Part shown: piece by piece, positions 1,168 to 6,173 of the stretch
How positions within the stretch are numbered: the stretch's first letter is position 1
Layout: every line of letters begins with the position of its first letter
Source of the DNA: an uncultured virus (IMG/VR IMGVR_UViG_3300042881_004667)
Lineage: Duplodnaviria > Heunggongvirae > Uroviricota > Caudoviricetes
IMG/VR virus record: IMGVR_UViG_3300042881_004667
Direction: 5' to 3' (one strand)
DNA: 64,000 nucleotides
Notes under the pieces: model-generated
The model's input: the letters and a program-made list of their open reading frames with translations, nothing else
Databases searched by the model: none
Told to the model about the DNA's origin: nothing
Made by a program: the position numbers and the translations under genes

Positions 1168-1751
1168 CCAAGAAGCGTACCTGGGATACTTACTTTGCAC
1201 CTCTTAAGGCACAACTAGGTGCTCGTAAAGAAACCTTTGAAAAAATCTTTGCACACCTTGACTCGTGTGACGAGCCAATCATTGTTGAAACCGGTACGTA
1301 CCGAGAGGAAAACAACTACACAGGCGATGGCTGCTCAACCTTGTTGTTTGATAACTACATTGACATCCGTGGGAAAGGTCAATTGATTTCAATTGACATT
1401 GACCCAAAGGCTTGTGAGCTAGCGCGTACATCTACCAAGCATGCAGAAGTTATTGAATCAGATTCTGTCGAAGCTCTTGATACGATGCACGGCCATGTAT
1501 CTCTCCTGTACTTGGATTCGTACAACATCACAGATTGGAATCATGATTGGGCGCCTGCTTCTCATCATCTAAAAGAATTGTTTGCAGCGTCCGGTCTCCT
1601 AGGGCCTAACACGTTGATTGTGGTGGACGACAACATTAAAGCACCTGACGGTCGTCGCCATGGCAAGGGACGCCTTGTGTACGAGCTGATGGAATCCCTT
1701 GGGGTAGAACCGTACTTTGACTCTTATCAAATCGGTTGGATCTGGTGTTAA
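1164..1751 (+). CDS. class I SAM-dependent methyltransferase (Methyltransf_24-like)
   Basis: IIVETGT, SIDID, SDSV, LLYLDS and IVVDD motifs in the expected order. Confidence 0.75.
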   Translation: MTKKRTWDTYFAPLKAQLGARKETFEKIFAHLDSCDEPIIVETGTYREENNYTGDGCSTLLFDNYIDIRGKGQLISIDIDPKACELARTSTKHAEVIESDSVEALDTMHGHVSLLYLDSYNITDWNHDWAPASHHLKELFAASGLLGPNTLIVVDDNIKAPDGRRHGKGRLVYELMESLGVEPYFDSYQIGWIWC

Positions 1752-1776
1752 TCTAGTTGTACTACCAAGAAAAGTA

Positions 1777-1986
1777 ATGGCTCTTTCTAATCAAGTTAAA
1801 GGATCCTTAGATGAAGCAGGTCGTCATCTGCGCGATGCACTTGCTTTTGCAGCACGCACTGAACACCCCGTTACCATTAATGCAATTACGGAGTTAATGT
1901 GTCGTCTTGATTCACTGGAAAAAATTGACATGATTATTGAGAAGTTTGATACCAACCATGAAGTGCCACATTCCTTCCGAGGCTGA
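1777..1986 (+). CDS. hypothetical protein
   Basis: ORF MALSNQVKGSLDEA..., helical, in operon context. Confidence 0.6.
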   Translation: MALSNQVKGSLDEAGRHLRDALAFAARTEHPVTINAITELMCRLDSLEKIDMIIEKFDTNHEVPHSFRG

Positions 1987-2131
1987 ACGCCTCGAAAAAT
2001 ACTTTGCAAGATTAACAAAAGAATTTCCTTACATCATGAGTAAGGAGATAGAAAAAGCGATAGCACGTCCATGTAAGTGGGCTAAAATATTAGAAGAAAG
2101 AGTTACGAATCCTGATGTCTCAGGAGAATAA
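1958..2131 (+). CDS. hypothetical protein
   Basis: short ORF in operon context. Confidence 0.4.
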   Translation: MKCHIPSEAERLEKYFARLTKEFPYIMSKEIEKAIARPCKWAKILEERVTNPDVSGE

Positions 2132-2210
2132 ATACACTAAGCCTGAGTTACGCGAACGTATTAAGGATCGCGTGATGGCAGGATCTAAAGGTGGAAAGCC
2201 TGGGCAGTGA
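2115..2210 (+). pseudogene. orphaned native 5' end of the DUF5872-like gene
   Basis: MSQENKYTKPELRERIKDRVMAGSKGGKPGQ then TGA at the cassette boundary; homologous to 2847-2948. Confidence 0.8.
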
Positions 2211-2854
2211 TTTTGTGCTATAGTAAGAAAAGCACAAACCAACCAATGCAAAAACTTTGCCGAGAATGCGGAACCAGAAAGCCGCATGAAACTTTTTCAA
2301 ACAAAGGATACAACTCAGCCGGCAATATAAAAAGAGACAGTGTATGCAAAGATTGCAAATCTTTAGTTAACCGCCGATTTAGATTTTTGTATGGAGCGGA
2401 CGGTCAAAAACAATGTTCTAAATGTGCTCATTATTTAGATTGGGATTGTTTTAGAAGACGCAAACAAGATGGGAAATTATATCTTCATTCTTCATGTAAA
2501 GCTTGTAACAAAATAACCTGGGATAAATGGGTAGCTAATAATGAAGAGCATTATCAAAAAGTAAAAAAGCAAGGACAAGATTTGCTTCATAAAGAGCACA
2601 AAAAATATGAGCGCAGAGGAATAACAAAAGAACAATACGACATTGTGTTTGAAGCCCAGGAAGGTTTATGCGCAATTTGCCAAGAACCTCCCAAGGATAA
2701 ACAATCTTTAGCCATGGACCATAATCATCAAACCAATGAGTTCAGAGGTTTGTTGTGCAAAGAGTGTAATAGAGCTTTAGGCTTATTTGGTGATAATATA
2801 GATGTATTGACAAACGCAGTCACTTATCTTAAAGAGCGAGGAAGTTATGGCTGA
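2207..2854 (+). CDS. endonuclease VII-family homing endonuclease with N-terminal CxxC repeats (likely start ATG 2246)
   Basis: C-terminal CAIC...LAMDHNH...RGLLCKECNRALG Endo VII signature; AT-rich relative to flanks. Confidence 0.85.
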   Translation: MILCYSKKSTNQPMQKLCRECGTRKPHETFSNKGYNSAGNIKRDSVCKDCKSLVNRRFRFLYGADGQKQCSKCAHYLDWDCFRRRKQDGKLYLHSSCKACNKITWDKWVANNEEHYQKVKKQGQDLLHKEHKKYERRGITKEQYDIVFEAQEGLCAICQEPPKDKQSLAMDHNHQTNEFRGLLCKECNRALGLFGDNIDVLTNAVTYLKERGSYG

Positions 2855-3158
2855 AGACAAAAGCAAGTACACCAAACCAGACCTGCGTGAGCGCATTAAA
2901 AACAAAGTTATGCGTGAAGGCCGTGGTGGTAAACCGGGAGAATGGTCGTAGCCGTAAGGCTAACTAATTATTTCGGCCCGTAAGGCTCAGCTTGTTGCTA
3001 GTGAGTACAAAGAAGCTGGTGGTGGGTACAAAGGCGGCAAGGGTGAGAAGCAAAAAGATTTAGAGAAGTGGGGCAAAGAAAAGTGGATGACCAAAGATGA
3101 GTATGAAAAGAGAGGCAAGGCTAAAGCTGCAGCTAAGAAATATAAGGAGAGTAAGTAA
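2847..3158 (+). CDS. DUF5872-like basic protein, N-terminal half; join(2847..2948,2976..3158) by putative ribosomal bypass
   Basis: MAEDKSKYTKPDLRERIKNKVMREGRGGKPGEWS + ARKAQLVASEYKEAGGGYKG... in the same frame; conserved GGKPGxWSARKAQL is rebuilt only if the gap is skipped; final TAA overlaps next ATG; family name recalled from memory. Confidence 0.7.
2946..2975 (+). other. putative programmed translational bypass element
   Basis: TCG (take-off), TAG, hairpin TAGCC-GTAA-GGCTA, ACTAATTATT, TCG (matched in-frame landing codon). Confidence 0.65.
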
Positions 3159-4078
3159 TGGAATTATTCCAGAAGTTTTTAAATCGTGTAAGCCGTGGCT
3201 ACGGTCAAGTAGATAAAAATGTGTTTGGTGGAGTGCTACCTGGCGGGTCTGATAGTCGGTTGGTTACTTCTCCGCAAACTACACTAACGCGTAAAACTCA
3301 AAAGATTACAAACGCAATTACTCCTGTCAATATTCGCGATAAAGTTGTCATTCCTATTTTAGATAAGGGTATTGAAAGTGGAATACTTCCTGCCGCCCCT
3401 GCAATGTTTGCACGTTATTTAAGTGGCACTGATGCTCCTTTAACAAGTTTACCTGCATCAATTAAGCAAGACGTTTCCAGGCTTGCTTCTCAACAAATTA
3501 ATCCAGAAGAAACGGCTCAAGATATTTATAACAACACAATACGTAAAAGAGCTTGGCAACTTTGGGATGAAGCTTGGAATACCAAAAAAGAAGAAGCAAT
3601 TACTAACGTTAAAGCGCAGCAAGGTCCTCTTCAATTTTTTCGAAAAAATGATCAAAATTGGCTAGAACAACGTGCTCAAGAAAGCCCGCTTGTACAAGCG
3701 GAATATGAACGTTTGTTGGCACAAGATACAAGCCCTGAAAAAACAAAAGCTTTAGCAGCAAAAACAGCATACCTTAATGCAGCTCAAAACAGAGACCCTA
3801 ACGCTCCATTTCCGGTAACTCACTCAACCGCGTATAAAGGCCAAGATTTTAAAATTGGACCATCAACCTTAACCCTTGGCTCGTTTACAGTAAATCCTGG
3901 CACAAGAGAAATAATGGATCGCTACAAATTTGATGATTTAGATAAAGGTAAAAACGTGCAGGGTATCTATCCAGATGCACTTGCTGGGGGCAGACCTGCA
4001 GCTATGTTAATTGATTTTGCTTTAAATAGCGGATTAATCACACCACAAAGCGGTTATGACATCCGCGCTAAATATTGA
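3158..4078 (+). CDS. hypothetical protein (306 aa)
   Basis: long ORF translationally coupled to the upstream gene. Confidence 0.8.
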   Translation: MELFQKFLNRVSRGYGQVDKNVFGGVLPGGSDSRLVTSPQTTLTRKTQKITNAITPVNIRDKVVIPILDKGIESGILPAAPAMFARYLSGTDAPLTSLPASIKQDVSRLASQQINPEETAQDIYNNTIRKRAWQLWDEAWNTKKEEAITNVKAQQGPLQFFRKNDQNWLEQRAQESPLVQAEYERLLAQDTSPEKTKALAAKTAYLNAAQNRDPNAPFPVTHSTAYKGQDFKIGPSTLTLGSFTVNPGTREIMDRYKFDDLDKGKNVQGIYPDALAGGRPAAMLIDFALNSGLITPQSGYDIRAKY

Positions 4079-4110
4079 TAATAAAAACAAATAAGACCAA
4101 TAGGTTAATT

Positions 4111-4314
4111 ATGGCAGACAAAGCAATTCAAAAAGGATATACAAAGCGCTACCTTCCAGAAAAAGCCTGGGCCTCACTGTCGAAGGAAGAACGTGCAGAG
4201 ACAGACCAAAAGAAACGTGCCGCAAGCCGGGAAGGAAAGCAATTTATTCCTAACACTGAGCGTGCAAAGAAAGCAGGACGCGCAGCTCGTCGTTATCGCA
4301 ATAGTAAATCATGA
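4111..4314 (+). CDS. DUF5872-like protein, C-terminal half
   Basis: TKRYLPEKAWASLSKEERAETDQKKRAASREGKQFIPNT resembles the C-terminal part of the family as I recall it. Confidence 0.65.
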   Translation: MADKAIQKGYTKRYLPEKAWASLSKEERAETDQKKRAASREGKQFIPNTERAKKAGRAARRYRNSKS

Positions 4315-4416
4315 TATCTTGACAGTGGAGCAATACCGCTCTGGGACTAATAGTCGAAAAGTCTCTCAACATTACAAACGTAGTGCTTAGCAATAAACAG
4401 AGTGGGAAGGAATTGC

Positions 4417-4444
4417 AACCCCGGCTTGATACACCGGGGTTTTT
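4417..4444 (+). terminator. intrinsic terminator
   Basis: AACCCCGG-loop-CCGGGGTT followed by T run. Confidence 0.7.
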
Positions 4445-4477
4445 GCTGTTATATTAATTATTGGATTTAAAATTCTT

Positions 4478-4711
4478 ATGGCAAGGATTGCAAGCAAAAA
4501 CAGTGGCAGGCCCACTAAACCCAGTGGCCCTAGTAAACCAACACCAGTCCCTAGTAAACCAAAACCAGTCCCTAGTAAACCAAAACCAGGTAGGCCCACT
4601 AAACCCGGTGGCCCTAGTATACCAGAACCATTCCCTAGTAAACCAGAACCATTCCCTAGTAAACCAACACCAGTCCCTAGTAAACCAAAACCAGGTAAGC
4701 CCACTAAATAA
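4478..4711 (+). CDS. Pro/Lys/Ser-rich repeat protein (77 aa)
   Basis: 21-bp tandem units (CCCTAGTAAACCAAnACCAGT) encoding PSKPxPV repeats; bounded by two terminators. Confidence 0.55.
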   Translation: MARIASKNSGRPTKPSGPSKPTPVPSKPKPVPSKPKPGRPTKPGGPSIPEPFPSKPEPFPSKPTPVPSKPKPGKPTK

Positions 4712-4766
4712 ACCTGGTATGCCAGGTCGCACTGCCAGATAAAAGCTACAAAATATTTGTTATGAT

Positions 4767-4791
4767 CCCGGTATAGCAACCGGGCTTTTTT
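4767..4791 (+). terminator. intrinsic terminator
   Basis: CCCGGT-atagca-ACCGGG then CTTTTTT. Confidence 0.7.
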
Positions 4792-5425: not shown

Positions 5426-5693
5426 TCTCGTTCCCCCTCTCTTATGATGGGGCAGATAGAGGGCAAGTCACTGTTACATCCTTGAGGTGTATCACACTTG
5501 CTCCATCTATTACTTAGGGTGCAACAAGGAACGTTGCATTAAACAAAGGATCCCCTCGGCCGCATCGTAGATCATCGTAGGCGGACATCCTTGCCCTTAA
5601 CAACACCCCCTATGCTTAGCTCTCAGATGTAGACCATATTGTTGACGTCAACAAAATGGTTTATAGAGATGATGCACAAACCTGGGGGTCACT

Positions 5694-5767
5694 CGGGGAT
5701 TAGCGCAGCTTGGTAGCGCAATTGCTTTGGGAGCAATGGGTCGCAGGTTCAAATCCTGCATCTCCGA
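5694..5767 (+). tRNA. tRNA-Pro(TGG)
   Basis: acceptor CGGGGAT/ATCTCCG, D arm, anticodon stem ATTGC/GCAAT with loop TTTGGGA, T arm GCAGG-TTCAAAT-CCTGC. Confidence 0.92.
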
Positions 5768-5768
5768 T

Positions 5769-5844
5769 CACCTGGTCCGAGCTAATTGGATAAGACGGTT
5801 ACTGCCGCTGCAGGACGATGTAGGTTCGACTCCTACCCAGGTGC
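5769..5844 (+). ncRNA. tRNA-like element with a non-canonical anticodon arm
   Basis: perfect acceptor CACCTGG/CCAGGTG and T arm GTAGG-TTCGACT-CCTAC, but no 5-bp stem/7-nt loop anticodon arm. Confidence 0.5.
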
Positions 5845-5918: not shown

Positions 5919-6173
5919 GTGACCTGGGACACTGCTAAAAAACGTATCGATAAGAATCGACAAAAGCTTTTGGAGTACAAGAAGACTTTGCAGTGCAAGA
6001 AGTGTGGGCTGAATGATCATCGTGTCCTTGAGTTCCACCACATAGGTGACAAGGATAACAACATCTCATCCATGGTCAACCATGGTTACGCCTGGAGCAG
6101 GGTAGAGGAAGAGATCAGTAAATGTATTCCGCTATGCTGCAACTGTCATAGGCTTGAGCACTGGGTTAGTTAA
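5919..6173 (+). CDS. small HNH endonuclease
   Basis: CKKCG...LEFHH...CCNCHRLEH. Confidence 0.75.
   Translation: MTWDTAKKRIDKNRQKLLEYKKTLQCKKCGLNDHRVLEFHHIGDKDNNISSMVNHGYAWSRVEEEISKCIPLCCNCHRLEHWVS

Follow-up and report, generated by a model that had tools for sequence, protein, structure and literature searches.

The 64,000-nucleotide stretch of DNA analysed here (the window) comes from an uncultured virus (IMG/VR record IMGVR_UViG_3300042881_004667), and its positions 2208 to 2975 probably constitute a homing cassette of the endonuclease VII (Endo VII) type that has disrupted a small phage gene. The disrupted gene would be rescued by a ribosome hop from one UCG codon to another, and a probability of roughly 0.72 is given to this reading as a whole. 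The hop over the 24 nucleotides (nt) that interrupt the coding sequence is considered likely in its own right. The anatomy of the cassette, its mobility, the existence of uninterrupted alleles, the decay of the severed native start and the constraints on codons and gap are evident from sequence comparison. The target is a small conserved phage gene in freshwater cyanophages resembling Synechococcus phage S-EIVl; its product belongs to PHROG 17747 (function not known; E-value 8e-20) and resembles DUF5872 weakly, below the Pfam cutoff. The three pieces of this gene that are present in the window share one frame, and the parts of the locus are the following:

2208 to 2975, plus strand: mobile cassette, 768 nt, from the terminal TGA of the orphan through the landing codon
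2115 to 2207, plus strand: orphan native N-terminus of the target gene, 31 codons, truncated after CAG T
2246 to 2854, plus strand: gene for an Endonuclease VII-type HNH homing endonuclease, 202 amino acids (Pfam PF02945, E-value 8e-23; PHROG endonuclease VII, E-value 1e-33)
2847 to 2948, plus strand: cassette-borne replacement N-terminus, 34 codons, with an 8-nt overlap with the nuclease stop; its last codon is the take-off TCG
2946 to 2948, plus strand: take-off codon TCG, preceded by TGG
2949 to 2972, plus strand: 24-nt coding gap, TAG CCG TAA GGC TAA CTA ATT ATT, with three in-frame stops
2949 to 2962, plus strand: gap hairpin TAGCC-GTAA-GGCTA, 5 bp with a GNRA loop, followed by the AT-rich tail ACTAATTATT
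2973 to 2975, plus strand: landing codon TCG, supplied by the cassette; the sequence reads TCG GCC CGT AAG from 2973 onward
2976 to 3158, plus strand: native C-terminal part of the target gene, ARKAQLVASEY...KESK followed by TAA (3156-3158), without a start codon of its own
2212 to 2238, plus strand: 8-bp hairpin 5' of the nuclease gene (fold -8.4 kcal/mol, z-score -1.95)
1937 to 2131, plus strand: upstream neighbour gene, 64 amino acids, from the list of open reading frames (ORFs); its stop codon and the native target start overlap

A preliminary description of this DNA placed the start of a second N-terminus at 2847, which is correct, and had it rejoin the native TCG GCC CGT AAG, which is not, since 24 bases with three in-frame stops intervene. 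The accompanying proposal that the cassette repairs its own insertion holds in so far as a copy of the 5' end of the target is brought along, but this copy is separated from the rest of the gene by the stop-filled gap. This gap was overlooked, and the target gene is left unrepaired unless ribosomes bypass it. A hop from TCG to TCG in the window would give ...GEWS-ARKAQL..., which is collinear with ...GQWSARKSQL... of S-EIVl.

The occurrence of the gap was surveyed in viral contigs and in metagenomes. A first pattern scan of viral contigs returned 30 loci. In 16 of them the same gene carries an identical 24-nt gap bounded by TCG codons; the remaining 14, hairpins that lack matching codons on either side, are unrelated and were rejected. 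Scanning with the nuclease protein gave 47 viral loci, and the viral set (n = 52) comprises the window, these 47 loci and four loci found by the pattern only. The gap is present at the same codon in 44 of the 52 sequences (the window and 43 loci), and the eight sequences that lack it are one truncated locus and seven distant relatives of the nuclease lying between other genes. The gap measures 20 nt in two of the 44 viral copies, 21 in 12, 24 in 21, 25 in six, 26 in two and 30 in one, with TAG directly after TCG in all 44. In 10 of these copies the downstream part lies in a frame other than that of the replacement N-terminus. Readthrough of the stop codons was ruled out as an explanation, since it cannot account for those gaps that shift the frame. 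The ORF downstream of the gap is intact in 44 of 44 copies, with a length of 49-63 amino acids.

The metagenome scan, in which the take-off codon was left free, returned 119 loci, 46 belonging to the family and 73 being chance matches. The take-off codon is TCG in all 46, while the landing codon is TCG in 44, TCT in one and TCA in one. The gaps are 20-26 nt long, 33 being multiples of three and 13 not, and the loops are GTAA (31 copies), GTGA (12), and GGGA, GAAA and GAGA (one each). The downstream ORF is intact in 43 of the 46, the other three running off the contig. The TAG after the take-off codon was a requirement of the search pattern in these 46 copies, so that it provides no independent test.

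The choice of codon on either side of the gap is strongly constrained. Among 35 distinct haplotypes the take-off codon is always TCG and the landing codon is TCG in 33 and TCT in two; third positions are variable in nearly all other degenerate codons of the replacement N-terminus. The same serine is encoded in 77 distinct cassette-free alleles by TCT (37), TCA (15), AGT (10), TCC (6), TCG (5) and AGC (4). The fact that the landing TCG is nearly fixed in the cassettes and rare in the free alleles indicates that this codon is part of the cassette and is constrained to agree with the one at take-off. The dinucleotide TC occurs in none of the 30 distinct gap variants, which are related and hence do not represent 30 independent trials, whereas shuffling of the variable 3' parts gave a mean of 11 and a minimum of 3 (2000 shuffles). 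Given that TC is absent from the gap, the landing codon is always the first UCN after take-off.

The hairpin that opens the gap is also maintained. All five pairs of the stem TAGCC/GGCTA form in 28 of 29 distinct sequences, and the loops found with an intact stem (GTAA, GTGA, GCAA, GGGA, GAAA and GAGA) all fit GNRA. The fraction of A+T after the hairpin ranges from 0.64 to 1.00 across the 30 variants and is 0.90 in the window. The fold of the wider region 2920-3000 is no more stable than that of shuffled sequences (z-score 0.08), and its outer pairings are not conserved. Taken as a whole, the matching of the codons, the absence of TC and the conservation of the hairpin would appear sensible only if the gap is crossed by re-pairing of a peptidyl-transfer RNA (peptidyl-tRNA).

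An alternative of low probability is that the gene is simply broken, with only the 34-residue peptide or nothing useful being made and the downstream part left as an untranslated remnant, which looks intact since each recent homing event puts the cassette beside a fresh host allele. The ratio of the proportions of nonsynonymous and synonymous differences (pN/pS) of the orphan is the same as that of free alleles (0.22 vs 0.20), which indicates that most insertions look recent, and the flanks are as diverged as unrelated alleles. Nonetheless, not a single broken downstream ORF was seen in the 44 and 43 complete copies, which include lineages without the nuclease and lineages with a decayed orphan. 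Moreover, TCG would not be maintained at both sites in a dead gene, nor would TC be kept out of 30 gap variants or a GNRA hairpin be retained.

There is a slim chance that two polypeptides are made, with translation stopping at the TAG, the downstream part being re-initiated from a non-canonical start codon within the gap or immediately 3' of it, and the two pieces cooperating. The window has two in-frame ATT codons directly before its landing TCG, and functional genes split by endonuclease insertion are known, as described for nrdA of phage Aeh1 in the available part of a preprint (bioRxiv 10.1101/2022.08.31.505936). However, no start-like codon is conserved before the landing site in the 30 variants, the tails of which end in ...AACT, ...AATA, ...ATGA (out of frame) or ...TTA, and re-initiation needs neither matching TCG codons nor a gap free of TC.

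That the gap is processed out and the RNA re-ligated, or that the hairpin and its T-rich tail form an intrinsic terminator or attenuator, is very improbable, given that the stem has just 5 bp, that the tail is a mixture of A and T with no T run in variants with the tails AAATAACT or CTAAATAATGA, that no Rfam intron or ribozyme family matches, and that the gap is retained in full in a 696-nt contig of an RNA library and no joint lacking it was observed, even though a consensus scan does list 2949-2962 and its tail as terminator-like. The RNA runs consist of contigs only, and are informative on neither expression level, strand nor RNA ends. One RNA-library contig (run X17, record 6) switches strand at the gap hairpin, matching 2931-2959 on the minus strand and then 2972-3106 on the plus strand, which may be a template-switch artefact.

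Several points weigh against the ribosome hop. The stem is invariant and, hence, there is no covariation in favour of the hairpin. One locus (L058, positions 3201-3227) has lost the GC stem (TAGCT ATAA TATTA) and keeps both TCG codons and an intact downstream ORF despite the loss. No Shine-Dalgarno-like triplet is found 5-7 nt before the landing codon, the tail in the window being without G; the only AGG or GAGG in the gap variants lies within the hairpin's 3' arm, at a distance of 9-19 nt from the landing codon. The parts of the gap outside the stem that match the gap of phage T4 gene 60 (ACTA and ATTATT) are not conserved across the cassette family. Given that most insertions look recent, the intact downstream ORFs could partly mean that there has been too little time for decay. 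The RNA-library contig that spans the gap could be contaminating DNA, and the support for the hop comes from comparing sequences.

The cassette behaves as a mobile unit. Its length is 768 nt in 15 of 17 loci (the window and the 16 loci with the closest nucleases), and 765 and 769 nt in the other two. Over the same 17 loci, the mean pairwise identity is 0.90 for the cassette versus 0.76 for the 78-nt orphan flank and 0.75 for the 141-nt C-terminal flank, with the limit that independent homing confounds such comparison of flanks among contigs that bear the cassette. Greater conservation of the cassette than of its flanks is the pattern expected of an element moving among diverged genomes. On the left, the junction always falls after CAR T, to which the cassette adds GA or AA to give a stop, and the right junction lies immediately 3' of the landing codon. 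The locus thus combines the features of a free-standing homing cassette, which are a nuclease of a known homing family, presence or absence at one site, and a cassette conserved above its flanks.

Uninterrupted alleles, which had been predicted in the preliminary description, do exist. Among 80 related loci gathered with a profile of the C-terminal part of the target, 79 read continuous ...GQW-SARK..., as does phage S-EIVl. The best cassette-free allele (L090) is 78-82% identical in the flanks, and no two contigs of at least 95% identity that differ in the presence of the cassette were found. Using the downstream gene of 306 amino acids as an anchor for close cassette-free relatives gave only 8 weak loci. 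Searches of 1700-3500 against isolated phages gave no match at near identity and, at greater distance, only short matches to S-EIVl and to nucleases. No cassette-type N-terminus fused to the gene without the gap, which would be a "hit and run" footprint, was found. In several uninterrupted alleles (L297, L301, L303-L305, L309 and L310, match at 901-926) the reading is GEW and not GQW, followed by ...ARKAQ[LM]LA[RQ]AYK[EA]KGGGY..., which resembles a tract linked to one cassette clade, and the N-termini are of the native type. These alleles could be footprints of co-conversion or naturally resistant alleles.

The gap outlives the nuclease in some lineages. In three loci (L015, L021 and L032) only the last 58 nt of the nuclease are left and the orphan is gone, while replacement N-terminus, gap and downstream ORF are retained, the last of these intact. 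Truncated nucleases with the gap and an intact downstream ORF kept are found in L071, L072 and L075, and the nuclease of L063 has a premature stop. The preliminary description had raised the case of both N-termini being maintained as independent genes in relatives lacking the nuclease; only the replacement N-terminus is kept where the nuclease is lost. Directly downstream of the gapped gene in L021 (878-1318, minus strand of the locus) there is a different ORF of 146 amino acids (MKTDAKGRTPTYNSWRSMRSRC...), present in all three contigs that lost the Endo VII-type nuclease, which looks like another type of homing endonuclease.

The Endo VII ORF was correctly recognized inside the target gene by the preliminary description. 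The nuclease of the window has CxxC-rich repeats in its N-terminal part, with the PF02945 match at the C-terminus, and full-length relatives at 72-94% identity are found in 33 viral loci. More distant relatives (L073-L080, 30-45% identity) are free-standing genes of the ordinary kind, lack the gap and were rejected as members of the family. The nuclease is read in a frame different from that of the host gene, and stops bound its ORF. No Rfam family, whether of introns, ribozymes or other RNAs, matches within 1900-3400 at an E-value of 1 or below, save for one small RNA match at chance level, and the Pfam search returned no match to a Hint domain. On these grounds a group I intron or an intein was rejected, and the earlier view of an intron-less and intein-less mobile element is borne out.

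The promoter-like TGCTATAGT that had been described before the nuclease gene is present at 2216-2224, but no promoter was picked up there by a two-hexamer scan. This sequence occupies the 5' arm and the loop of the 8-bp hairpin at 2212-2238, which may control expression of the nuclease. The hairpin in this position is weak in four of the six loci folded, and L066 carries at the same place (865-920) an unrelated, perfect 19-bp hairpin (-29.8 kcal/mol, z-score -7.4), a hint that structure before the nuclease gene has a conserved role.

With respect to the severed start, the stop of the upstream gene overlaps the start at 2115, which marks this as the native position of the target gene. The same overlap between upstream gene and target start recurs in S-EIVl, with a related ...PCKW...ER... 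tail. The truncation of the native start is as first described, the orphan ORF (2115-2210, 31 amino acids) ending in CAG TGA at 2205-2210. In the window the orphan is 94% identical over 32 residues to the N-terminus of one cassette-free allele. Orphans differ between contigs and, while still intact in most loci, are disabled or absent in several: the ATG has become ATA in L034 and is out of frame in L037 and L039, the orphan of L053 has a stop at codon 3 and a frameshift, that of L056 has lost its 5' part, and L059, L066 and L068 have no orphan. The orphan is a decaying remnant. A comparison of dN/dS (ratio of nonsynonymous to synonymous substitution rates) between orphan and replacement had been suggested in the preliminary description; the orphan could not be separated from cassette-free alleles by the pN/pS values given above, and the replacement N-terminus is under purifying selection (pS 0.54 and pN 0.125 over 34 distinct sequences). 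The replacement N-terminus also keeps the residues that are conserved in native alleles.

The replacement had been described as synonymously recoded, with 18 of 26 aligned residues identical to those of the orphan and 14 of these 18 using different codons. The count is correct, but special recoding is not supported by it, since orphan and replacement differ in 78% of codons versus 55-67% for the orphan against nine cassette-free alleles. Synonymous sites in the target family are saturated (pS 0.78-0.81). The divergence between orphan and replacement is what any distant allele shows, with no evidence of special design, although recombination may still be impeded by it. The gap, which lies 4 nt away from the truncation point of the orphan, is a better explanation than recoding for protection from self-cutting.

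A sequence of events can be proposed from these observations, in which the place of cleavage, the part played by the gap in immunity to self-cutting and the hop are predictions. The Endo VII-type HNH nuclease would cut cassette-free alleles at or near a conserved ...GGK-PGQ-W|S-ARK... site, a position suggested by the invariant left junction (CAR T) and by the gap lying 4 nt away. Repair from a genome that bears the cassette would then copy it in, with the native N- and C-terminal parts of the gene serving as homology arms; in forms without an orphan, the upstream gene would replace the orphan as an arm. The insertion would sever the native start and leave it as an orphan ending at the cassette's own stop, and the cassette would supply a second start and 34 codons, translationally coupled to the nuclease gene. 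Given that direct joining of the replacement to the gene would rebuild the target site, the cassette would carry the 24-nt insert at this place to break the site up. Ribosomes would translate to Ser34 (UCG), stall on the UAG that opens the GNRA-capped hairpin, slide over the AU-rich gap with the peptidyl-tRNA-Ser, and re-pair at the first UCN, which is the landing UCG. The product of the hop would be one protein of 94 residues, collinear with the uninterrupted alleles.

As for the rest of the window, no second copy of the target gene was found within its 64 kb. A separate ORF of 79 amino acids at 4075-4314 contains ...KRYLPEKAWASLSKEER..., and many longer cassette-free relatives of the target protein carry a similar ...GERYLPKKAR... 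stretch as a C-terminal fusion; S-EIVl-like phages may have the target family naturally divided between two genes. A second small HNH-type ORF of 84 amino acids (...EFHHIGDKD...CCNCHRLEH...) lies at 5919-6173, just 3' of a tRNA-Pro(TGG) gene at 5693-5769, and may be another free-standing endonuclease. A stretch of proline- and lysine-rich repeats (PSKPKPVPSKPKP...) at 4387-4779 is open in several frames on both strands.

Long coding gaps crossed by programmed bypass have so far been a near-unique curiosity, and if the reading proposed here is true, this would be the first hop of the T4 gene 60 type found outside the topoisomerase gene. A second family would untie the bypass mechanism from one gene or nuclease, the new family being different in gene, nuclease, hop amino acid and host group. 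Its natural gap variants, about 30 in number and 20-30 nt long, have an invariant hairpin, no mini Shine-Dalgarno sequence and no cognate codons inside the gap. Such a series makes it possible to test the determinants of the landing site, the minimal length of the hop module and the role of the nascent peptide. The hop would also account for an endonuclease residing in a tiny, essential-looking gene without an intron or intein. A literature search found no earlier report of the PHROG 17747 cassette family.

Free-standing homing endonucleases of T4-like phages spread by intronless homing, and the classical cases lie between genes. The cassette is similar to these in its presence or absence at a fixed site, in the co-conversion of neighbouring sequence and in being conserved above its flanks, and differs in lying inside a gene, with a replacement start and a coding gap.

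A parallel for the position inside a gene is nrdA of Aeromonas phage Aeh1, which is split by MobE and remains functional, the "genes in pieces" of the available part of the preprint (bioRxiv 10.1101/2022.08.31.505936). In both cases a free-standing HNH homing endonuclease lies inside a coding gene, the function of which is rescued, or here would be, without an intron or intein. In Aeh1 the halves are separate polypeptides with added tails, whereas here the cassette replaces the whole 5' part and the gap would need to be crossed. The terminase gene of Streptomyces phage Hau3 is, in the accessible text of its report, a candidate for UUA-triggered bypass of 10-nt inserts, for which a regulatory role is proposed (PMC10732093). 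Common to both are a short gap in a phage gene, a proposed re-pairing of peptidyl-tRNA and a local RNA structure that brings the landing codon close (PMC10732093, same text). The trigger in Hau3 is a rare sense codon, unlike here, and that text mentions no homing endonuclease, the word "homing" occurring 0 times (PMC10732093).

The closest known system is T4 gene 60 with its MobA element. According to the available part of the preprint, the homologues of gene 60 number in the dozens, all lie in the gene for the large subunit of topoisomerase II of myoviruses, and the cassette "remains unique" (bioRxiv 10.1101/2022.08.31.505936). The cassette described here shares with gene 60 the matched take-off and landing codons, the UAG directly after take-off, a hairpin that starts at the stop, the identical stem TAGCC/GGCTA with a stable tetraloop, and an AU-rich 3' part of the gap. 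GNRA loops occur also in some of the cassettes of Manning and Atkins, as far as the accessible text of that source describes them. With MobA it shares a gap that lies beside the presumed nuclease target and travels with a nuclease of the HNH superfamily. It also shares, going by the same part of the preprint, an N-terminal cassette piece that includes a copy of the target sequence ("HomR" in bioRxiv 10.1101/2022.08.31.505936), an out-of-frame overlap with the nuclease ORF (8 nt here versus 8-32 nt in MobA cassettes), and the loss of the nuclease with retention of the gap in some lineages. The logic of a gap that breaks the target and is then hopped is likewise that proposed there for the T4 MobA element.

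There are also differences. The target here is a 94-residue protein of PHROG 17747 and not the large subunit of topoisomerase II. The nuclease is of the Endonuclease_7 type and has no sequence relation to MobA, a BLASTP comparison with the intact MobA of phage HY01 giving an E-value of only 6.5; MobA itself gives only a weak N-terminal match to PF01844. The hop codons are UCG (Ser) here and Gly or Asp codons in the gene 60 type, and the gaps are 20-30 nt versus about 50 nt, with one clade at 20 nt in the available part of the preprint. Nearly all T4-type cassettes covered there (bioRxiv 10.1101/2022.08.31.505936) have a Shine-Dalgarno-like triplet 5-7 nt before landing, which is lacking here. 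The native 5' end is left as an orphan here and deleted in the MobA element, and the upstream piece has no C-terminal extension here. Finally, the genomes are those of freshwater cyanophage-like viruses, in contrast with myoviruses of gamma-proteobacteria.

When the window gap was aligned with that of T4, taken as the annotated gene 60 bypass region of the T4 record, 20 of 24 bases were identical with a single 23-nt deletion, the whole stem being included. This score was equalled by 6 of 20,000 shuffles and by 2 of about 20,000 random 24-mers of the window. Given that the matches outside the stem are not conserved in the family, homology with T4 is uncertain. The identity of the stem may reflect descent or convergence, with common descent having roughly even odds or less; convergence is conceivable because a stop at the base of the stem and a clamp of two GC pairs leave few choices. 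It is tentatively suggested, with the odds somewhat against it, that the stop-plus-tetraloop "hop module" is a portable device exchanged among unrelated homing endonucleases and shared by descent with the MobA elements that T4-like phages of proteobacteria carry. In that case hopping would be a general means of protecting and repairing the invaded genes, used repeatedly by selfish nucleases, and cyanobacterial ribosomes would need no Shine-Dalgarno guide for it, the landing taking place at the first cognate codon.

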